The translations under genes and the position numbers were made by a program. A stretch of DNA of 36,051 nucleotides from Chrysochromulina tobinii. Its lineage: Eukaryota. Below, piece after piece: positions 13,908 through 32,417 of this stretch (positions within the stretch are counted from its first letter, which is position 1; each line of letters begins with the position of its first letter). The DNA is taken from NCBI GenBank assembly GCA_001275005.1, contig JWZX01003067.1:1-36051 (forward strand). Reading direction: 5' to 3'. The notes beneath the pieces are model-generated. The model was not told where the DNA came from and did not search any database. It saw nothing but the letters and a program-made list of their open reading frames with translations.

Positions 13908-16306
13908 GTGTGGGAGTCGCACTGCTCGCCGGCCCGGCAGCCCCCGGCGCGTCCGAAGGTTCCGATTTCACCACGGCACCCTCTGACGCCGGCGGTGGAG
14001 CGTCGTCGGCCGTCCCGTGCGCAGCCACGCCGTTAAGTGTGGCCCCCGCCTCCGAGGGCGCACCCGCAGCGGACGCCGGCATTGGTGGTACCGACGGCGC
14101 TGCCGGTGATGGCGGCTCGGGCTTGGGTGGCACCGCGCTCGCGCAGACCGCGCCTGACGACTCGCCACTCGCAAACGACTCGGGCACTCCCTGGCCCCCC
14201 TGGCCGTTTTGCGTGGCCTCCGACCCCTCGCCCCCCTCGACCTCCATCGGCGTCGGCCCGGTGGCTTCCCCACAGCCGGTGGCTCCCGCCTCCGGATCAG
14301 GCGCCGGGGCCGCCGCCGACGAGGTCGCCCGCGCGCCTTCGGTGGCCGCAGCAGCGGAGGCATCGGTGGTTGCAGCGGCGGCGGCCCCCGCCGTATCATC
14401 CCCTGTGGCCGACGCGTCTGGCGCCGCCAGCGCCTCTGCTGACGAGGTGCGACCTGCGGTCGCTCCTGCCGCGGGCGCAGCTGCTGCCCCACCCTCGGCC
14501 GCTGCCGGCGCCGCTGGTGCCACGTCGGCCGCTGGTGCCACGTCGGCCGTCGCTTGCGCGTCCAGCGCCATCGCGTCGCGTGCGGGTGGCGCCTCCGACT
14601 TGGGCGCCGACTTGGGCGCGGCCGGTGCGGGCTTGGTCGTTGGCGGCGCGGCGGACGCAGCTGGGGCAGCGCCCACAGGGGCGGCGGGCGGCGGGAAGCC
14701 GATAGCAAGGGTGCGCGTCTGCCCGTCCTTGAGGATGCGACGGATTCGGAAGGTGAAGGTGTCGGACACGTAGATGGCGGCCCGGTCGAGGGCGATCGCG
14801 TTCGGGAAGCTGAAGGCGGCGGCCTGCCCCTTACCGTCGATGACGGCATTGCGCCCGCTGCCCGCGAGTGTGCTCACCGTCCCCTTGGTCGTCACCTTGC
14901 GGATGCGGTGGTTGGCGCGGTCGGTCACATAGAGACATCCCTCCGAGTCCATCGCGATGCCCACCGGGTAGAAGAACTGGGCGGCGCCTCCCGAGCCGTC
15001 CTTGTGGCCAGGCGCGCCGGTGCCCGCCAGAGTCTTCACGTCGCCCTGCTGGCTCACCGTGCGGATCCGATGGTTGCCCGAATCCGCGACGTAGAGCGTG
15101 CCGTCGCTGCCGATCGTGAGGCCATACCTGCCGCGGCAGCACACGCGCGCGCGACGAGGCGTGGATGAGGGGCGGGATGGGGGGAGGAGGAGGGGGGATG
15201 GGGGGAGGAGGAGGGGGCGGTCCAACGGAGCTCATCATGAGACATGTCCCTCCTCCTGATGAGGAGACATCAGATGGCGGGATGGGGGGCGGTCCAACGG
15301 AGCTCACGGCGTTTGGGGGGGTGGGGCGATGGGACGGCGCGCGCAAGGGGGGGATGAGCGCGCGGTGCCCAGGCGTGCGAAGAAGACACTGACGATGACG
15401 AGGGATCGTGTGTGAATGACGATGTGTGAATGACGATGACGAGGGATCGTGTGTGAATGACGATGTGTGAATGACGATGACGAGGGATCGTGTGTGCACA
15501 TGGCCAGCGGCACGCGCGGCGGCGAGGGCGGTGCGCGTGGAGGCGGCGCACGGATGGTCAAATGCTGCCTGCAGACCCGTGCCGTCCTGGAAGCCTGGGT
15601 TGCCGTTGCCCGCGAGGAGCGTGATCTCGCCGTTGGGCGCCACGCGGCGCACCGTGTGCGAGCCTGAGTCGGTGATGAAGGTGACGCCCTCCTTGGTGCT
15701 CACGATCCCTTGGGGGTCGACGAGCGCAGAGATGTTGCCGCGGCCCTCCCGAATGCCAGGGTCCCCGTTGCCCACGATAGTGCTCACGGCGCCGTACGAC
15801 ACGAACGAAGCCCATGAGGCGCCCTCTGCCGGCACGGCCTCAGGCTTCACGTACATCACGCTCACCTTTCGCAGCCGTCGGTTGTCCGAGTCGCTCACGA
15901 GCAAGCTACCGTCCGCAGCTATGCCGAGGCCTGTCGGACCGTTGAAGAGCGCCGATGAGCACGGGCCGTCGGCGAAGCCCGCGGCTCCCGACTGCCCCGC
16001 CACATGCACAATTGGCAGCAGGGGCTGCGGGATGATCCCGGCTGCGGGCGGCGGAGGCAGTCCACCCCACGACGCCTCCTCGTGTTCGACCTTGGGCCGC
16101 TTGGCTCGCGGCTCGGCGGCCGGGGCACGGCTCGGTCCTGCACCCTCGCTTGGCAAGGCGACGGCTCCCTTTTCCTCTTTCTTCTCCTTCTTCTCCTTTT
16201 TCTCTTCCGGCTCCTTGCGTCGCTTCTCCTTCCTCTCCTTTTCCTCTTCGTCCTCTTTCTTCTCGGGCCGCTCGCCGCCTCGGCGCGTGCTCATCCTTTG
16301 CTCCAT
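13468..16306 (-). CDS. NHL-repeat beta-propeller protein with charged N-terminus and long Ala/Pro-rich insert; exons 16306-15552 and 15127-13468
   Basis: FNGPTGLGIAADGSLLVSDSDNRRLR, DPQGIVST..FITDSGSHTVRR, FFYPVGIAMDSEGCLYVTDRANHRIRK, FSFPNAIAL. GT-AG intron 15551-15128 restores FDHP|YGLTIGSDGTLYVADSGNHRIR. The first ATG in frame is at 16306. Confidence 0.88.
15394..15497. repeat. Intronic tandem repeat (~41-nt unit GATGACGAGGGATCGTGTGTGAATGACGATGTGTGAATGAC, ~2.5 copies)
   Basis: Seen directly. The same intron also has GGGGGCGGTCCAACGGAGCTCA twice (~15214, ~15285) and GGGATGGGGGGAGGAGGAGGGG twice. Confidence 0.85.
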
Positions 16307-16497
16307 GGTGTCCAACCGCCCAAAGCCAGCCGCCGGCTTAGCCACCGCCACGTTGAGGCAACTCGCGCGCCGACTGGTGGCCGAGGGTACCCTTCGCCGC
16401 CGCCACGTCAACTCTTTTTCAAGCCTCTTCACGTGAATGACCTTCTGTTTTCTGTGGAAAAATGATGCGGAACAATTTCGAACTCGCGACGGTCAAT

Positions 16498-18297
16498 TCA
16501 GGCCCACGGGGGCCGCCACGGCAAGCGGCTGACCCATCCGAGCGAGCGGGCCACCTGTTCGGGCGCGAGGGTGCGCGCGGTGAGCGTCGCGTTCCAGTCG
16601 TGCGAGTATGAGGAGGTGACGTCCACGAGTGTGCCGTCACCTATGGCCACGACGTAGGTGAGCGTCTTGCCCCAGTCGCGCCCGTAGATGAGCGGCTCGT
16701 CCACGGTGGCCTCGCATGGGTCCAAGGCCACCCATCGGTGTGCGCCGTCGCCCTGTCGCCGACGGCGCACCGCGCGCTTGCCCACGCGCCGGCGCAAGCT
16801 CATCATCAGCGGGACGAGCGGGCGCCCCGACGATTCGCCTGCGGTGGCCGCGGCCGCGCCGCCACGCTCTGCGACAGCCGCCGCCGCCTCATTATCTTCG
16901 GCGCCCTCCGCCCCCGGCGTCTCCTCGGGCACCTTGAGCTCGATCCACATATGATCCGTCCAGTCGACGACGAGGCGCGCGCGCCAGCCGAGGGCGTGCG
17001 CGAGCTGCAGCAGCACCTGCGAGTACTCTCCGCATCGGCCGGTGCGCGTGCGCAGCACCTTCTGCACGTCGTTGTAGCGCGGGAAGCGCGTGACAGCGCC
17101 GCACGCGCGGCAATGCTGCAGCTCCGCACGCGACGCGGCAAAGCTGAGCTCACGCGCTGACGGGTACACGTTGCCGAGCAACTCGCCCGGCCCGGCGCCG
17201 CACTCGGCGCACGTCGCACGATTGTATGGAAAGTGCCTCTTGAACCAGCGGAGAAGCTGCCGCCAACCCTCGAGGCTCGCGTCGACCCCGTGCCGTTCGA
17301 GGGCGGAGCGCTGCAGTGCGCCCAGCTCGAGGCCCGAGTGGCTTCGAACATAGTAGAGCAAGGCGTGGCGCTCGCGGCTACATGTCGACTGGAGCCGGCG
17401 CACACGACGCACATGGGTGAGCAGGTCGCGACGAAACTCCCGCTCTACCAGCCGGCGGCGCGTCGCTGAGTTGCGCACCAGCCGCGGGTCATCCTCGGTG
17501 CCCGCTACGGCACTCGACGTTCTCGCGTTGCCATCCTGGCCGCCTACCTCGCCGTCGCCGCCACCCTCCGCACCGCCCTCTGGTACCACCTCTTCCGCTT
17601 CGCGCCGAGCCGCCGCGTCGAGTTGGCCGTGCGTAGCGAGCTCACTTAAGCGCACGCCCCTTAGCAGCAGCCGCTGCTGGCGCCAAAGCCGCTTTAATCG
17701 CCGATGCGTCGCCCGCTCGGAGAGCTCGAGCCGCTCGCAGCGGAGCGCGTGCGCGAGTGCCGCCTCGCGCATCGCCGGGGCCGCCGTCGCCGCCGCCGCT
17801 GCCCATCTCTCCACGTCCAGTGCGGGCGGGCGGTCTTGCTGCCTGAGCCGCCGCTGCACCACGCGAACTTGAGTGTCGCCGCCGGGCGGTGACGGATCGT
17901 CGCTGGACTGAGGAGCGACTCCGAGCCGCTCGTACCTCAGCCACGTCGCCGCCTGCGAACGGTTGACTCCGACCGCGCCCCACTGGGTACCGTCCGCGGC
18001 CTCAAACAGCCACATGTCGATGGTCCCGTTGACTGGCCGCGTGATGCAAGGCGGCTCTTCCGGCCTTTGCTCTGGCGGGCTGTACATGCGCCGGAGCCGC
18101 CGTTCGCGCAGTGAAGATGCGCCTGGTGCCAGCGCGCTTGCAATGTGGCGATGCGGTCGAGGCAGCTCGACCGTTTCGAGCAGCATCGTTGGCGAGCCGC
18201 CACGTCGCAGCCATGGCCTCGGCCTCGCCCTCGATTGCGTTGCGTGCGGCGCGTTCGGAGCGGCCCATGCCAGCAGCAGGACAAACACGCCGAACAT
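16498..18297 (-). CDS. PNG1: Peptide:N-glycanase (PNGase, transglutaminase fold) with N-terminal signal peptide
   Basis: LLRWFK..F, CAEC and CRAC Zn pairs, RFPRYND, TRTGRCGE (Cys), DWTDHMWIE (His), WVALDPCE (Asp), PLIYGRDWGKTLTYVVA, DVTSSY. ATG 18297 gives MFGVFVLLLAWAAPNA. Confidence 0.92.
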   Translation of the reverse strand: MFGVFVLLLAWAAPNAPHATQSRARPRPWLRRGGSPTMLLETVELPRPHRHIASALAPGASSLRERRLRRMYSPPEQRPEEPPCITRPVNGTIDMWLFEAADGTQWGAVGVNRSQAATWLRYERLGVAPQSSDDPSPPGGDTQVRVVQRRLRQQDRPPALDVERWAAAAATAAPAMREAALAHALRCERLELSERATHRRLKRLWRQQRLLLRGVRLSELATHGQLDAAARREAEEVVPEGGAEGGGDGEVGGQDGNARTSSAVAGTEDDPRLVRNSATRRRLVEREFRRDLLTHVRRVRRLQSTCSRERHALLYYVRSHSGLELGALQRSALERHGVDASLEGWRQLLRWFKRHFPYNRATCAECGAGPGELLGNVYPSARELSFAASRAELQHCRACGAVTRFPRYNDVQKVLRTRTGRCGEYSQVLLQLAHALGWRARLVVDWTDHMWIELKVPEETPGAEGAEDNEAAAAVAERGGAAAATAGESSGRPLVPLMMSLRRRVGKRAVRRRRQGDGAHRWVALDPCEATVDEPLIYGRDWGKTLTYVVAIGDGTLVDVTSSYSHDWNATLTARTLAPEQVARSLGWVSRLPWRPPWA

Positions 18298-18741
18298 CTT
18301 TTTTCGCTCTTCGTATGAGAGTGCAGGGGCCACCAGGGCGAGGTGACCATTGAAGTTTTTCAGAGTGAGGACTTCGTGGGGAAACTCAAAAAAACAAAAA
18401 AACAAAAACGCGAGCGTGTAAAGTGTTCTTTACTTAGTTCTTAATCTACATACAATGTACACGACCCACGCGGGTCACTCATTCACTGACTCCAGTCTAC
18501 TCTACTCAGACTCACACATGCACAGTTGTCAGTTGACGTATCTAAGTACTCTCTATCGAGACGCATCTCACCCGGCTGCAACTCGCATGTTTGACGGCGC
18601 ATAGACGCAAGACGCGAAGACGGCGCATCGCTCCAAGCTCCTACCAAAGCCATTTAGCATTCATCGTTCCAAACATGTAAGTCGATTGCACATGGACAGC
18701 GCAGAGCGCACTTTAGCGCACTGAGCGCCCATACGCTGCTC

Positions 18742-21700
18742 TCACATCATCACCTCAAGGTGGTACAGCTCCCCTGACTGTGCGCCGGCAGCAATCCTGG
18801 GCCAACTCACAGCCACACACTGGATTGGACTCGGCGCATAGAATGCGCCGCCCCCGTCCTTCATGCGAATTGTCGCGCCATCGCGCACCGCACCCTCCGC
18901 CTCTTTGCTGAAGGCCATGGCCTCGCCTTGACGCGTTTCAAGCAGGTTGAACGAATCTGAATCCCAGACTTTGATCGTTTTGTCAGTCGATCCGGACACA
19001 ATCTTGGTCCCGTCCGGGGAAAACGCCACCGATCGGATGGTGTCGCTGTGGGCGTTGGTCTTCTCGCTCAACAGCTCCAGTTTGTCTGCCAGGCAAGCCA
19101 AATGGCGTCAGTTTTGGCCAAGGAGGGGCAATTTTGAAGGCAAAAGCGCACCCGAATCCCAGACTTTGATCGTCTGGTCCCACGATCCAGAAACGATCTT
19201 GGTCCCGTCCGGGGAAAACGCCACCGACGAGATCAAGTGGCTGTGGGCATTCGTCTTCTCGCTCAGCAGCTCCAGTTTGTCTGCCAGGCAAGCCAACAGG
19301 CGTCAGTCTTGGCCAAGGAGGGGCGATTTTGAGCTCGTGGCGCACCCGAATCCCAGACTTTGATCGTCTTGTCGTCCGATCCCGACACAATCTTGGTCCC
19401 GTCCGGGGAGAACGCGACAGACCTGATCCAGTCACTGTGGGCATTCGTCTTCTCGCTCAACAGCTCCAGCTTGTCTGCCAGGCAAGCCAACAGGCATGAG
19501 TTTGGGCCAAGGAGGGGCAATTTTGAGGGCAAAAGCGCACCCGAATCCCAGACTTTGATCGTCTTGTCGCGCGATCCCGACACAATCTTGGTTCCATCCG
19601 GGGAAAATGCCACCGACCAGATGGTGTCGCTGTGGGCGTTCGTCTTCTCGCTCAGCAGCCCCAGCGCGTCTGTCAGACAAGCCAACAGGCGTCAGTTTTG
19701 GCCAAGGAGGGGCGATTTTGAGCTCGCGGCGTACCCGAATCCCAGCCTTTGATCGTCTCGGGTTCCAGGGCAAGCGCTTACCTCTAGATGGTTTCACCCG
19801 CTCTTCTTGGCCTGTGATCTTGTTGCGCCACCATGTTTCGACTTCATCCTCCTCGTCTGAGAACTCCGCATAATGTAGTGTCTTGTCGAATGACCCCCAC
19901 TCGGATTCAACATGTGGACGGAAATTGATTGCATCCCAGACTTTGATCGTCTTGTCGTCCGATCCGGACACAATATTGGTCCCGTCCGGAGAAAACGCCA
20001 CCGAGTTGATGTCCCTGCTGTGGGCGTTCGTCTCCTCGCTCAGCAGCTCCAGCTTGCCTGCCAGACAAGCCAGCAGGCGTCAGTTTTGGCCAAGGAGGGC
20101 GATTTTGAGGGCTCCGCGGCGCACCTAAATCCCAGACTTTGATCGTCTTGTCGTACGATCCTGAGACAATCTTCGTGCCATCGGGCGAAAACGCCACCGA
20201 CGAGATGTTGTCGCTGTGCGCGTTCGTCTTCTCGCTCAACAGCCCCAGCGCGTCTGTCAGACAAGCCAACAGGCGTCAGTTTTGGCCGAGGAGGGGCGAT
20301 TTGAGAGATCGCGGCGCACCCGAATCCCAGACTTTGATCGTCCCGTCCTTAAAGCCAGCCACGATGAGCGACTTTGACTGATTAGCGTGCTTGCCACCAT
20401 CCTTGACACCGTCCCATATGGCGACGCTCATGACCTCGCTTGTGCCCTCGATCTCCTCGATCAGCTCCTGGCTCTCGGCGTCGTACACGAAGATGGAGTT
20501 GCCTGAGCCACTGACGATGCGTGTGTAGCCGACCGCCACAGAGCTGACGACACTCTTGTGCGACAATGTGCCGATGCACGCGTCCTTCTCTTGGGATTTG
20601 TTACGCCACTTGAGTGCTCGCGTCGGCTGCTCGGACGATATGTGCGAAGCTGCTTCACGAAAAACCGCACTTGCATCTGGCTGCTGCAGGGCGAGCTGCA
20701 TCACTGCCGCGCCCTTGTCACGCTGCAGCACGTCCATGTACTTTCCCACAAATTGGCGCATCTCGGTTGCGTCTGTCAGGTTCACACCGTCCACACGTCG
20801 CAGCTCGAGGTAGTCCTTAGCCACGCTCGAAAGAAGGCCTCTATCGACTCGTTCACGAAGTAGTGCGAGGTCCGTCGCATACACGTGGGCAGCTTGGGCA
20901 GCGAAGGCACCTTTCGCGCCCTGGCCATCGGCCCGACAGAGGTGCAAAATGCCGTGTCTCAGCCAGCAGTAAGTCGCCGCCACATCGTCCGGCTCACGAC
21001 CTTCGGTTGGTGTCACGGTGCGCCACGCGATGAACCCCTCGGCGAGCATCGCGTGCCCGTCCTTGCGCTGCACCTTGAACTCCGCCGATGGCTCTCTGAT
21101 CGAGCTGCCATCGGCGATCTCGCCCGTCAGCCAGTCGACGATGGTCTTGTGAAAGACATGCAACTTGCCATCGCGCACCGGAAAGAGAAGTGCCGTCGTC
21201 TCAATCACGCGCCTCTGCTTCAAGTCGTCCCATCCGAGGAGCGCCGCCGCCATTGCCCCCGTGATCGGCTCGCGCGCAGCCGCAATCAGCTCAACAAGGG
21301 GCTTCGCCTCGGTCCACGCGGGGTCCACCTGACCTTCGGGAAAGGCGCGCTTGAAGTTGACGGCGTACACCTCGCCCAGGCCGGCCGGGAGCGAGTCGAG
21401 GCTCTCGAAGTGAATCTCTTGGCCTTTCTTGGCCTCGCTCTCGAGGTGCTGGCTGAGCATGTAGGCGTACAAGAAGAGGCCCTCCGCCTTGGCCGAGAGT
21501 GCCTCCACTGCAGCGTCTAATGACGACGTGCTGAGGCGGCCAACGATAAAAGCCTCGAGCTCCCCGGCATCAACCTTTGTGCCCTGGCAGAGAGTGGGCA
21601 GCTCCTCGCGGACCTTCTCGTAATGGACGTGCGCCTCCTTTTTTGCCTCGAGCATGTCTATATGGTTGAGCTGGATCTCGCACACGTACCTCGTGCCATC

Positions 21701-29900: not shown

Positions 29901-32417
29901 GATGGAGCCGTCAGCGCCGCCGAGGGGCCCGGGGGCTCCGCTGCCGTCCTCGACCTCTTTTCGGACATGCTCTCAAAGCTCGGCTGGAACCAGCCGCAGG
30001 AGGGCAAGCACGATGAGTCGGCCAGTCTGCTGCTCCGGCAGCTTGCCAACAAGCCCGGCGGCGCGCTCCCGGCCAACGAGCCGCAGCGCCAGCCGTTGGC
30101 GAGCTTCTTCGACTTTATGTTCAGGCCGCCTCCGCGGCGCGAGGAGGAAGAGGCCGCGGTGCGCTCTGCGCCGCCAAAGGAGGGCGCCCCTTCGGGTATG
30201 GGCGCCCCTTCGGGTATGGGCGCCCCTTCGGGGCATCCCCACCCGGGCGTCGACATGTCCGTCGGCGGCCTGCCGGTGCTCGCGCCGCCGCCGCCGGTCA
30301 AGTCGCCGAAGAACGACTCGTCGCGCTCGGGCTTGCACGCGGCCGACGGGCGTCGAGATGGGCGTGGCTGTGCCCTCACGGAGGCGCTGAGTGAGGCCTC
30401 CCTACGAGAGGGTGCGCTGCGCCCCCGCTCGCCCGAGGACGATGACGCCGGGGGCTCGAGCGCCTCGGGGCTCTCGGCATCGATGCCCGTCGGCTGGCGG
30501 CGCTTCTCGTCCCTCGACGGCCGCCCGTACTTTTTCAACCCGAACACGAACGGGACGCAATGGGAGCCACCGATCTTACGGTACGAGATGACGGACGAGG
30601 AGGGGCTGCCGTGCTACTATTTTTACGATCCGCTCACCCGCCGCACCTCGTGGATCGAGCCCGAGAACATCCCCGGCTGGCAGCTGCCGGAGAGGCAGCA
30701 GCGCCAACTGCGCGGCGCCGCGCGCGTCGGCGCCTCCATCGCGGCTGGTCTCGGCACGCAGCCGGCGGGCCACTTGGCGCCCACGGCAGCGATGACGGCT
30801 GGTGGCGCATGGCCGCGCGGCGAGTCGGACGAGGCGGACTATGAGGACGTGGACTTGCTCTCGCCCGGCGACGCGGCGGACGAGGTGCACAAGATGGCGC
30901 CCGACTCGGACCACGCGGGCTACCCTTTCTCGGACCCGACTTACGAGGAGACCTCCGACTTTTTCCTCTCGCCGCAGCCAACATCGTCCCATGGCGCGTC
31001 GCCGCCGGTGGCGATCGCGCCGCAGCCGATCCGCGCAGCCCAGCTGCAGCTGCCGCGCGCCGCCTTTGCCCCCGCCGCCGAGGCTTTCTACTCGGAGGAC
31101 GAGGATGAGCTCAAGGGCGTCACCATCAAGGACCTCGGCACGGGGCGCACCATCACGATCCAAGATTTGGAGCGCGAGTATCCTCCTCTCAAGAGCAGCC
31201 CGCATTCGGCGGGCGCGCTCGCCGCTGACACGGGCGCCGGTGTGGCCTTGCCGAAGCTGAGCGCGCGTGAGAAGATGGCGAGGGTCGCTCAGCAGCACGA
31301 GATCGGCGAGATGGCGCGGCAGCATCGCCAGCCCCAGCCCCAGCAGCGGCAGCAGCATGGGCAGCAGCAGCAGCATGGGCAGCAGCTCCAGCGCCAACGG
31401 GAGCAGCCGCAGGCTGCACGGTCTCCGCCCAACACGGCGCGCTCGACCGGATCTGCCCGCGCGAGCGACCAGCATCGCTGGATCGAGCGCGCGGAGCAGA
31501 CGGAGCTGGACGGCTATCCAGACGACGCCGAGGCGGAGGCGTACAACAATCGCAAGCTGCCGCAGCATTACAAGGCGCTCGCCATCAAGGACCTGGACAC
31601 GGGGCGCACGATCGCCTTTGAGCATGCAGATATGCTCCGGCAACCGTTGCTCGTGCGCGACCTTGATGCCAACATCCTGCTCCCCTTGGCCCCGGACGAG
31701 GGGCGCAGCGCCATCGCGGAGGAGATGCTCAACCCTCCGCCCGCCCAGATGAAGTTCATGTCCTGCTCGCTGGAGCGCACGACGCTGCCGCCGCCCCTCT
31801 CGCTCCCCGAGTACCGGCTGTTCAAGGTGAGTCGCAAGCGCAAGGTCGAGATGTTCTCCGCGTGCCGCCGGCAGGAGGACACTGGCATCACCCACTTTGA
31901 CGTGCGCTGGATGGACGGGGTGCTCTCGTTCACCGGCCGGCTGCAGCTGCTCCCCCCGAGCGCCGGCTCGCACCTGCACGAGCTCGCCATGTACGATGAC
32001 TACATCAACTACTATGGCTTCCCGCGCGAGCTCGGCTTCATCCGGACCAAGCAGCTGCTCAACTTGGGCGAGACGGGCGCGCTGATTGAGCTCATCATCC
32101 CACGCGTCTCGCCCGATGGCGCCGCCGCCCAGTTCCGCGTGAACGCGGTCCCGGGCCAGTCGATGCTCACGATGTACAAGCAGCGGCGCGCGCGGGAGCA
32201 CATGTTCGTTCTGCGCGGCCGCCTCTCGATCCTTGACTCCCGAGCGCTCGTCGAGCTGCGCCATCGCGATGAGAAGGGGCGCCTCAATGTCGTCCTCCAG
32301 GCGAAGCGAATGCGCTCGAGCAAAGGCGAGGCGCAGCCATGGCGTGTGGGCTTCGCCCATCCGCTCTCGGCCTTCCAAACCTTTTGCGTGCTGCTCGCGC
32401 TCCACACGGACCATTGA
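26934..32417 (+). CDS. Unconventional myosin heavy chain: motor, IQ motifs, two WW(-like) domains, C-terminal Tubby-like domain
   Basis: IYTFVGSVLLAVNPY, P-loop GESGAGKT, switch I NSNSSRFGK, YLLEKSRV, switch II LDIFGFE, FEQLCINFANEKL, HFVHCVKPN. IQ-like AQKYLRMWLALRRF, IQHAVRSHRVR, LQKHLRGWVAMRQY, IQAAYR. WW MPVGWRRFSSLDGRPYFFNPNTNGTQWEPP. Ends WRVGFAHPLSAFQTFCVLLA. Confidence 0.93.
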   Translation: MSSPQPQDGSPPSPPGSRSPHLRGRRDKGKPATDVASSRDAAAGVSDVTQLLTLTEESVMQNTMVRFSRDEIYTFVGSVLLAVNPYKVIPALYGEAAMEAFQHVSMLEAPPHIYALMEGAYRKAVNGGGNQCLIISGESGAGKTESTKHALSYLVWRMRFATSVGATGASSSSSSPDSSDGTSASGARLTTSILQANPLMEAFGNACTSRNSNSSRFGKCVRLTLDAERGYLLGGQVETYLLEKSRVTSGMADHFASGERNFHAFYQLVAGVAEAQAAGPKAAGGGGGGLLGFLRLVASEQDELSPHALVGFESLGLTGSPRDYRLLGQFGGAADAHHIAAAKARGLDDAAAFRKTCAALCDLGCSRDEIRSLFSLLAALLHLGNGEFEDDATGIARPAPGLGAAALAAASRALRCPQLADLLLHRSLKVGGEMMRIDLRAEQADNLLRGILKSLYTLGFGWILRRVNSVLRAGGAEPTAPSRDSAGVVVLDVLDIFGFENFASNSFEQLCINFANEKLHQLFLKTMFKAEEAVVARERLTLPPIEYCDNQRCLAMLEDAPRGIFHVLDTCCRVHASAASFCLQVHAWHAECEFLVLSMNGTNEDRTFTVRHFAGDVCYHVEEFSSKNTETMESQTRQVLDAEGLALLRPIFDDEGDAAAPAPSADEPIGGSGQSRDANGHGANGGGGGGLSFGTAAAAVAASTGLRRATSTAGVERGEAGRMASSTGKRFLRDMGRLMASLLASSSHFVHCVKPNGMEQPELLSYEMVAEQLTSLGTLETVQLMGLGYPVRIKYEQLRRRYLPRLANIPGAVLLSPKLFVEMILEVCDTPPGDYKLGVTRLFLRHRAAQVLESLEPLDVSVLEPLVRSKVDAFWQAASRIRDALLTYYHQKRFRAFWKCVRIAQKYLRMWLALRRFKRMVSSAGTIQHAVRSHRVRLACQARRARRGAAIRLQKHLRGWVAMRQYLRVLDAASTIQAAYRLKHPPPQADGAVSAAEGPGGSAAVLDLFSDMLSKLGWNQPQEGKHDESASLLLRQLANKPGGALPANEPQRQPLASFFDFMFRPPPRREEEEAAVRSAPPKEGAPSGMGAPSGMGAPSGHPHPGVDMSVGGLPVLAPPPPVKSPKNDSSRSGLHAADGRRDGRGCALTEALSEASLREGALRPRSPEDDDAGGSSASGLSASMPVGWRRFSSLDGRPYFFNPNTNGTQWEPPILRYEMTDEEGLPCYYFYDPLTRRTSWIEPENIPGWQLPERQQRQLRGAARVGASIAAGLGTQPAGHLAPTAAMTAGGAWPRGESDEADYEDVDLLSPGDAADEVHKMAPDSDHAGYPFSDPTYEETSDFFLSPQPTSSHGASPPVAIAPQPIRAAQLQLPRAAFAPAAEAFYSEDEDELKGVTIKDLGTGRTITIQDLEREYPPLKSSPHSAGALAADTGAGVALPKLSAREKMARVAQQHEIGEMARQHRQPQPQQRQQHGQQQQHGQQLQRQREQPQAARSPPNTARSTGSARASDQHRWIERAEQTELDGYPDDAEAEAYNNRKLPQHYKALAIKDLDTGRTIAFEHADMLRQPLLVRDLDANILLPLAPDEGRSAIAEEMLNPPPAQMKFMSCSLERTTLPPPLSLPEYRLFKVSRKRKVEMFSACRRQEDTGITHFDVRWMDGVLSFTGRLQLLPPSAGSHLHELAMYDDYINYYGFPRELGFIRTKQLLNLGETGALIELIIPRVSPDGAAAQFRVNAVPGQSMLTMYKQRRAREHMFVLRGRLSILDSRALVELRHRDEKGRLNVVLQAKRMRSSKGEAQPWRVGFAHPLSAFQTFCVLLALHTDH

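Follow-up and report, generated by a model that had tools for sequence, protein, structure and literature searches.

A predicted NLR-like gene of the haptophyte Chrysochromulina tobinii with a WD40 region made of tandem exon-intron cassettes and five hypervariable codons per repeat

We analysed a stretch of GC-rich eukaryotic DNA of 36,051 nucleotides (nt) from Chrysochromulina tobinii (contig JWZX01003067.1), hereafter called the window. It carries on its minus strand a gene for a predicted NTPase of the NACHT type that ends in a tandem array of WD40 repeats, most of them encoded by an exon of their own. A long minus-strand open frame (23383..20276) leads into this array, which Tandem Repeats Finder places at 18959-20342 with a period of 195 nt and 7.1 copies; a higher-order period of 389 nt is also detected (88% matches). 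Each 195-nt unit consists of a 129-nt stretch, with boundaries ..CAG/ and /GTGCGC, plus a spacer of 65-67 nt. When seven minus-strand exons are joined (23224..18742), a single open frame of 4041 nt is obtained, encoding 1346 amino acids (aa) and closed by one terminal stop. Since the seven joined exons form one open frame, all six introns are in phase 1; their lengths are 66, 67, 112, 66, 65 and 66 nt. The features of the gene and what each of them rests on are the following:

18742..23224, minus strand: whole coding region of the NACHT-type/WD40 gene (7 exons, open frame, Pfam)
20320..23224, minus strand: exon 1: MG-starting leader, P-loop NTPase, ~360-aa insert, winged-helix/helical region, two degenerate WD repeats (frame, Pfam, RNA joint 20320 to 20253)
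20254..20319, minus strand: intron 1, 66 nt, phase 1, GT..AG (RNA joint, runs X1, X2)
20125..20253, minus strand: exon 2, 129 nt, WD repeat 1 of the conserved set (boundaries, frame)
20058..20124, minus strand: intron 2, 67 nt, phase 1 (RNA joint, runs X1-X4)
19782..20057, minus strand: exon 3, 276 nt, a WD repeat plus a 49-aa in-frame insert with its own GTAAGC donor (frame, RNA)
19933..19951, minus strand: first 19-nt direct-repeat copy beside the insert, the end of the WD repeat in exon 3 (0 mismatches)
19670..19781, minus strand: intron 3, 112 nt, made of the insert tail, a disused exon-end copy (19739-19757) and an ordinary cassette intron (RNA joint, runs X3, X4)
19541..19669, minus strand: exon 4, 129 nt, WD repeat (boundaries, frame)
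19475..19540, minus strand: intron 4, 66 nt, phase 1, without in-frame stop (open frame 19263..19691 reads through)
19346..19474, minus strand: exon 5, 129 nt, WD repeat (boundaries, frame)
19281..19345, minus strand: intron 5, 65 nt, phase 1, carrying the 7 array differences from locus L035 described below (RNA joint, run X4)
19152..19280, minus strand: exon 6, 129 nt, WD repeat (boundaries, frame)
19086..19151, minus strand: intron 6, 66 nt, phase 1 (boundaries and frame; no unambiguous RNA joint listed)
18742..19085, minus strand: exon 7, with the sixth conserved WD repeat, a 70-aa C-terminal tail holding one degenerate repeat, and the stop (frame, Pfam)

The initial annotation of this region had described four exons of exactly 129 nt (20253-20125, 19669-19541, 19474-19346 and 19280-19152) separated by phase-1 introns, and both points are confirmed, the former by the boundaries given above and the latter by the single open frame over seven exons. 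The four exons stand, but the conserved repeats number six: a fifth lies in exon 3 together with a 147-nt insert, and the last exon begins with the sixth.

RNA evidence was taken from contigs of four metatranscriptome runs (X1-X4); such contigs drop rare variants. Joints were seen for four of the six introns, namely 20253 to 20320 (66 nt), 20056 to 20124 (67 nt), 19669 to 19782 (112 nt) and 19279 to 19345 (65 nt). No clean joint is listed in the RNA contigs for introns 4 and 6, the joint from 19473 to 19546 having 6 extra letters. Some introns are also covered unspliced in these contigs; this coverage is mostly mismatched and therefore points to paralogues, or to precursor RNA or DNA. At least half of the gene's sampled words are present in 16 RNA runs. 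Intron 4 has lost the in-frame TGA of the other cassette introns, and its retention would add 22 residues with the frame intact.

In exon 1, the Pfam profile NPHP3_N is matched at 98.3 bits (cut-off 24.8, E 7e-28), AAA_16 at 40.1 bits (cut-off 32.6) and APAF1_C at 26.2 bits (cut-off 22.8); the classic NACHT profile PF05729 (23.5 against 26.7) and HTH_TANC1 (19.6) remain below their cut-offs. WD40 matches are found in exons 2-7 (E 1e-12 to 1e-26), and Walker A and Walker B motifs are readable in the translation. The gene thus combines an NTPase profile above cut-off, a helical module after the NTPase and a C-terminal repeat sensor, the features that define STAND NTPases. From the matches to NPHP3_N, AAA_16, APAF1_C and WD40, we predict that its product is an NLR-like STAND NTPase of the NACHT/NPHP3_N type with a WD40 sensor. 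The nearest named protein relatives come from the haptophytes Prymnesium parvum and Chrysochromulina tobinii; farther ones are found in pelagophytes and among fungal NACHT-WD proteins. Protein relatives are designated below by P numbers. When the last exon was used as a protein query, most hits were long WD40 proteins that are unrelated, the tail being covered only by P0117, P0129, P0152 and P0154; it is conserved in P0117, P0129 and P0154.

The spacers are about as alike as the exons, as the initial annotation had noticed: among the four full units, the 6 pairwise comparisons give a mean identity of 84.9% for exons and of 86.7% for introns. Six copies of a 34-nt intron core are present in the window, always within the array, against 0 expected from shuffles. 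At the protein level, the six conserved WD repeats are on average 86.4% identical (range 80.5-95.2%), and 94.5% identical when five hypervariable sites described below are left out. Repeats are termed highly internally conserved (HIC) when their protein identity within a gene is at least about 85% (PMC4986451; here and below, papers are cited for those parts of their text that were available to us), and the window's six repeats, at 86.4%, belong to this class. They equally display the hallmarks of a one-repeat-per-exon gene, with a constant exon length divisible by three and phase 1-1 exons.

The initial annotation had also anticipated that related cassettes exist elsewhere. They were sought by means of an intron 20-mer in metagenome contigs, apparently from the same and related organisms. 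The scan gave at least 129 stretches, of which 126 loci were examined; these are the basis for all counts of L-numbered loci, the L numbers denoting array-bearing metagenome loci. Arrays were then detected with a profile built from the window's units. They were present in 123 of the 126 loci, hence in at least 123 further loci, and the remaining three share nothing with the window beyond the 20-mer and are chance pattern matches. Among the matches listed, the arrays fall into at least about 85 groups, many of them fragments, and one assembly (prefix Ga0210242) alone contains at least 8 array-bearing contigs. Short-read metagenome assemblies handle 195-nt repeats poorly, and many arrays stop at contig ends.

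The cassette is attached to two gene types. The first consists of NACHT-type paralogues, with 87-91% DNA identity to the window's gene and unrelated flanks, in which the number of repeats varies: 3 in L013, 6 in the window, 8 in L004, 9 in L010 and 10 in L052/L031. L065 also has 10 repeats and is tied to a NACHT gene by its tail only. The second type consists of stand-alone genes with exactly 7 repeats, of which there are at least 14, with an apparent Met start just ahead of the first repeat (L034:4708-6416, L012, L025, L027, L048, L060, L067 and others). One conserved C-terminal tail of ~50 aa, without Pfam family, ends at least 18 stand-alone loci. Among unique complete units, the exon is 129 nt long in 186 of 212 and a multiple of three in 211 of 212, and intron length ranges over 60-77 nt. 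Exon length keeps the frame and intron length is free, which is therefore the signature of coding exons, spliced introns and preserved phase symmetry; the proposal that symmetric cassettes can be present in any number without loss of frame is thereby upheld. In L010, about 2 kb downstream of the NACHT-WD gene, two truncated arrays meet head to head at a WD codon (L010:7224-8283), and the plus-strand copy runs on into a diverged last exon, 77% identical to that of the window. The two arrays may be orphan cassettes or else result from an assembly join.

Hypervariability in the repeat is confined to five codons, 15, 16, 18, 34 and 36. Over 235 unique units, most positions have an amino-acid entropy of less than 1 bit; the value rises to 3.2-3.9 bits at codons 15, 16, 18 and 34 and to 2.2 bits at codon 36. 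Among 211 non-redundant cassettes, the mean pairwise difference is 0.621 at positions 1+2 of the five hypervariable codons. For the other codons it is 0.200 at third positions and 0.076 at positions 1+2, and for the intron 0.134. The five codons are thus 3 times more different than third positions and 4.6 times more than the intron. This holds for close relatives too: the 50 pairs whose backbones are less than 5% apart differ by 0.488 at the hypervariable sites, and pairs 2-4% apart share on average 1.7 of the 5 hypervariable residues. Distinct five-residue combinations number 190 among 227 cassettes.

We considered whether the intron is under strong purifying constraint. Once the search-pattern units are removed (133 of 235 left), intron entropy is 0.455, against 0.563 for third positions and 0.70 for mostly four-fold sites; the intron is then as variable as the exon overall and somewhat less so than four-fold sites. 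The idea was weakened accordingly and set aside, the constraint being mild and largely that of splice signals. No consensus pair was found by RNAalifold in 256 unique introns when a conserved RNA fold was looked for, and the five window introns fold no better than shuffles (z +0.2 to +0.9). At the level of sequence, the intron appears to diverge like near-neutral sequence carried with its exon.

To place the variable codons, we used a structural model of the WD region of the relative P0129, built with a 33-sequence alignment (mean predicted local distance difference test score, pLDDT, 74.9; repeats 85-97; tail <50). By repeat position, strand d occupies 5-9, strand a 17-22, strand b 28-33 and strand c 38-42. 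According to this layout, an exon therefore comprises strand d of one blade and strands a-c of the next. It follows, as far as the model holds, that one exon would equal one WD sequence repeat and not one structural blade, so that of the blade-per-exon scheme put forward in the initial annotation, one WD sequence repeat per exon is retained and the structural blade is not. In the same model, the d-a loop contains codons 15-16, strand a has codon 18 at its start, and the b-c turn contains codons 34 and 36. The hypervariable residues are predicted to line the top face of the propeller, where they may bind a ligand that varies. PDB 2ymu is the best Foldseek hit of the P0129 model (E 2.5e-26; TM 0.35 over the whole model), whose matches span 7-bladed, 8-bladed and double propellers. 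By count, the window's protein has 2 degenerate and 6 conserved repeats and 1 degenerate repeat in the tail.

We then asked how cassettes of different arrays relate to each other in their non-hypervariable columns. Cassettes of one array have a mean distance of 0.102; the value is 0.106 for equal positions in different (7-repeat) arrays, 0.105 for unequal positions and 0.109 for NACHT against stand-alone arrays, and it is also about 0.10-0.11 between NACHT arrays. The nearest neighbour lies in the cassette's own array for only 18 of 167 cassettes. Recent events can be recognized, as units 3, 5 and 10 of L065 differ by only 0.6-1.8%. On these distances, the cassettes may form a pool mixed through exchange, or may be saturated under shared constraint. 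A correlation between exon and intron distances (r = 0.19) was considered as a sign of mosaicism and left unused, the sites being too few to calibrate it.

The same locus was found in three further assemblies. L035 runs parallel to window 14104-25291 for 11,188 collinear nt with no gap, and L121 (99.6%) and L125 (100%) span the full array. In all three, the array units are identical to those of the window in number and order, which therefore argues against collapse and against rapid copy-number change. Two suggestions of the initial annotation are not borne out by this comparison, namely that unit number changes between strains and that the unusual blade count hints at an assembly collapse. 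Repeat-number polymorphism at the locus was not seen in these three assemblies, which are possibly related samples and make a weak test. The window and L035 are distinguished by 150 sites; exon 1 has 142 of them, intron 5 has 7 and a single one lies elsewhere, with flanks otherwise identical over 7 kb. The exon 1 patches (window 20500-22999) that differ from L035 match paralogue sequence (P0001 versus P0002 and P0003); they are either allelic gene conversion tracts or the result of the assembler switching between paralogues.

Taken together, we consider it likely that the array provides an NLR-like STAND protein with its sensor domain, built from an amplified 195-nt cassette, that duplication, loss and exchange of whole cassettes take place in the germ line, and that diversifying selection acts, in each repeat, on five residues predicted to lie at the surface. 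The interpretation as evolutionary cassettes has good support. In the mechanism that we propose, tandem amplification of the 195-nt exon plus intron would build the WD40 sensor, and unequal recombination or gene conversion, both inside a locus and from one locus to another, would give rise to new arrays. The conserved intron would be passively co-amplified and add homology, and phase symmetry would keep every recombination product in frame. Diversifying selection on five residues per repeat would then lead to new binding specificities, in a protein that might act in non-self or pathogen recognition. The diversity generator imagined in the initial annotation is partly recovered here: the lack of positional orthology, the five hypervariable codons and the NACHT paralogues with 3, 6, 8, 9 and 10 repeats speak for it, but a controlled generator is not shown.

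Several points weigh against this explanation. The equidistance of cassettes may reflect saturation without exchange, and the ~170 usable columns per cassette cannot separate the two. The contrast between site classes is a proxy for a formal test of the ratio of nonsynonymous to synonymous substitution rates (dN/dS). Structural placement comes from the model of the relative P0129, and the repeat number of the window's protein from a count. The presence of the same units in the same order in L035, L121 and L125 indicates that turnover is not fast at that scale. The loci come from several metagenomes, and some of the 'paralogues' may be different species. Finally, no ligand, phenotype or N-terminal effector domain of a known family was identified (domains by Pfam).

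A more far-reaching version supposes that NACHT receptors and stand-alone propellers draw on one genome-wide cassette pool by ongoing inter-locus exchange, with the intron as a homology handle. The pool would constitute a repertoire generator for non-self or virus recognition, independent of the fungal and brown-algal systems, and may also act in splicing or in somatic cells. In this extended form the idea appears doubtful to us.

It is unlikely that the array is an ordinary, recently duplicated repeat without adaptive role, in which the variable residues are simply unconstrained and the many arrays reflect neutral family expansion. Tandem exon duplication is indeed common, the 389-nt higher-order period can be read as a simple block duplication, and the locus is stable in the three other assemblies. 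Relaxed constraint, however, cannot lift replacement-type sites above neutral ones, and the five codons exceed third positions 3-fold and the intron 4.6-fold; they are almost saturated even in pairs whose backbones are 96% identical. The other 37 codons, by contrast, are strongly conserved (0.076) and the exon is a multiple of three in 211 of 212 units, which therefore indicates purifying selection on a working fold.

Another possibility is that the cassettes are used at the RNA level or somatically, exon skipping, reordering or recombination giving many isoforms per array. Every skip would be in frame, the exons all being symmetric phase 1, and retention of intron 4, with its 66 nt devoid of in-frame stop, would keep the frame. 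In brown algae, receptor genes are reported to undergo alternative splicing of their repeat exons (PMC13449251, PMC11378527), and RNA contigs do contain joints that skip 267 to 1039 nt, from exon ends to later exon starts. On their shorter side, however, these long joints have only 21-38 nt, within sequence common to several exons, and a junction between neighbours fits equally well. Given this ambiguous placement, the multi-unit 'skips' were rejected as evidence of exon skipping. The donor at 19782, the one donor in unique sequence, makes a sole joint among those listed, to the next exon. Among the joints listed in the RNA contigs, to which rare isoforms are invisible, the only unambiguously placeable ones connect neighbours. 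The skipping or reordering of exons in RNA envisaged by the initial annotation thus finds no support in these contigs, and we judge such a use of the cassettes quite improbable.

We find it very hard to believe that the array or parts of the gene are an assembly artefact, collapsed or chimeric between paralogues. The 142 differences in exon 1 and 7 in intron 5 between the window and L035, within identical 7-kb flanks, are what would be expected if the assembler switched between 90%-identical paralogues, and metagenome short reads are poor on 195-nt repeats, with many arrays ending at contig ends. Against this, L035, L121 (99.6%) and L125 (100%) agree unit for unit, the units are 13-15% apart and hence distinguishable, exon 3 and its junction are matched by RNA contigs without mismatch, and the cassette layout recurs in at least 123 loci.

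That the introns are a mobile family (introners) inserted independently into each repeat can be given next to no credence: codon and phase of the intron's position do not change from repeat to repeat, the intron is found solely in WD arrays among the matches listed (the 3 outside pattern matches sharing only the 20-mer) and diverges like near-neutral sequence travelling with its exon, no flanking duplication is seen by eye around the ordinary introns, and near-identical introns at unrelated sites with insertion footprints were not found, all of the at least 123 matching loci being WD arrays with the intron at the same codon.

Exon 3 departs from the cassette pattern. Between WD codons 19938 and 19744, 194 nt cannot be aligned to the cassette units. 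This insert is bracketed by a 19-nt direct repeat of the exon end, at 19933-19951 and, 194 nt downstream and with 1 mismatch, at 19739-19757. It contributes (window 19782-19935) 49 in-frame codons, or 147 nt, and a new GTAAGC donor, and the second 19-nt copy now lies inside intron 3, as confirmed by the RNA joint 19782 to 19669. RNA contigs match 19782-19962 without mismatch, and a homologous insert exists in locus L015 and in two distant protein relatives, P0029 and P0117. At 194 nt in total, the insert has nearly the length of one cassette. We had considered that a unit was swapped for foreign DNA of equal length and set this aside, the flanking 19-nt direct repeat favouring an old insert; on sequence grounds, the odd exon 3 is better read as probably an old insert flanked by a direct repeat. 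Judged by the WW-domain consensus only, the 49-aa insert shows a resemblance to a WW domain; a Pfam search of the insert gave nothing. A second, unrelated type of insert, of 163-182 nt inside a repeat exon, is again bracketed by a repeated exon end; it is in frame in L017, L022, L028 and L051, and the same gap pattern is seen in L041, L054 and L062.

Two other parts of the protein deserve mention. The N-terminal leader (~70 aa, window 23020-23224, minus strand) starts with MGAGASAL, presumably a myristoylation-type start. It recurs with 77-93% identity at the start of proteins of quite different architecture, P0090 (1694 aa, Pfam NACHT and LRR) and the other long proteins P0074 and P0076, and may be an N-terminal module common to several receptor-like families. 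The ~360-aa insert that separates the NTPase core from the winged-helix region (window 21305-22387, minus strand, residues ~280-640) is highly conserved across all relatives; a feature search of a protein atlas led to a cluster named 'RelA/SpoT domain-containing protein' (0.91), which is a lead only. No Pfam match at E up to 5 was obtained for the 49-aa insert, the 360-aa insert, the C-terminal tail or the tail of the stand-alone genes. The neighbouring genes each consist of one long open frame: a transglutaminase-core/Rad4-like protein (16498-18429, minus strand), a 2-oxoglutarate dehydrogenase E1 (23373-26417, plus strand) and a myosin with a WW domain (26928-32417, plus strand).

Haptophyte blooms are commonly ended by viruses. 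If our interpretation is right, the genes described here would be candidate innate-immunity or non-self receptors for haptophytes, would have converged with the fungal repeats on the same four hypervariable WD40 positions, and would offer a natural test of whether conserved introns aid cassette exchange. Two described routes to fast receptor diversification, the conserved WD40 repeats with few hypervariable surface residues of fungi and the one repeat per exon of brown algae, would be united in one system, in a third unrelated lineage, which is of interest for NLR evolution and for algal host-virus biology.

By fold, the closest known structure is that of PDB 2ymu, which we take to be a highly repetitive bacterial WD40 propeller. 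By its entry title it is a WD40 array of many repeats, and the match concerns the fold of the relative's repeat region only; it differs from the present system in having no introns, no NTPase and no hypervariability analysis.

A much closer parallel is the NWD/HNWD family of Podospora anserina (HET-E, HET-D, HET-R), NACHT-WD40 NLRs with highly internally conserved repeats (PMC1805685, PMC4986451; see also PMC2873952). In both systems, a NACHT-type NTPase is followed by WD40 repeats, whose protein identity is about 85% there and 86.4% here. Repeat numbers differ widely among loci, 2-15 there and 3-10 here, and repeats are equally similar between loci and within a locus. Positively selected codons in Podospora are 7 and 9, around a conserved residue 8, and 25 and 27, around a conserved residue 26, and were mapped to the top interaction surface (PMC1805685). 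Both systems thus show hypervariable codons in two pairs, each enclosing a conserved residue and lying 18 codons from the other; for our repeats the model places them in the d-a loop and the b-c turn. Residue combinations mostly differ from repeat to repeat (55 of 69 there, 190 of 227 here). The differences are as clear. Here, each repeat is its own phase-1 exon and the unit includes a conserved intron of 65-67 nt, whereas the available text of the fungal papers does not mention introns for the repeats (PMC1805685, PMC4986451). A fifth hypervariable codon (15) is present here, and no HET or other known N-terminal domain is found by Pfam. Strains are polymorphic in repeat number in Podospora, whereas the three assemblies examined here have the same units as the window. 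Finally, there is here a companion stand-alone 7-repeat family with the same cassette, and the host is a unicellular haptophyte.

The exon layout in turn recalls the candidate receptors of Ectocarpus, ROCO-LRR and NB-ARC-TPR proteins with one repeat per exon (PMC3341825, PMC11378527), and the likeness pointed out in the initial annotation proves apt (PMC3341825). Each repeat has its own exon, of constant length divisible by three, which makes the gain or loss of exons frame-neutral, and the genes belong to multigene families whose members vary in exon number. In the brown alga, residues that face the ligand were found to be under positive selection, for which the site-class contrast stands as a proxy here, and orphan repeat copies on the opposite strand occur near genes, a possible case here being L010:7224-7852. 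In contrast, the repeat here is WD40 (129 nt) instead of LRR (72 nt) or TPR, the NTPase belongs to the NACHT/NPHP3_N type, and the introns, at 60-77 nt, are short and match the exons in conservation. For Ectocarpus, alternative splicing has been reported, whereas only joints between neighbours are unambiguous here.

A parallel between the fungal and the brown-algal systems has already been drawn in a 2026 paper (PMC13449251). No description of the combined system was found in a full-text search of the literature, which did not cover paper supplements. What is new here is the combination, in a haptophyte, of the fungal-type HIC WD40 pattern with the brown-algal layout of one repeat per exon. 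Also new are the short introns co-amplified with their exons and a second, stand-alone gene family that uses the same cassette.

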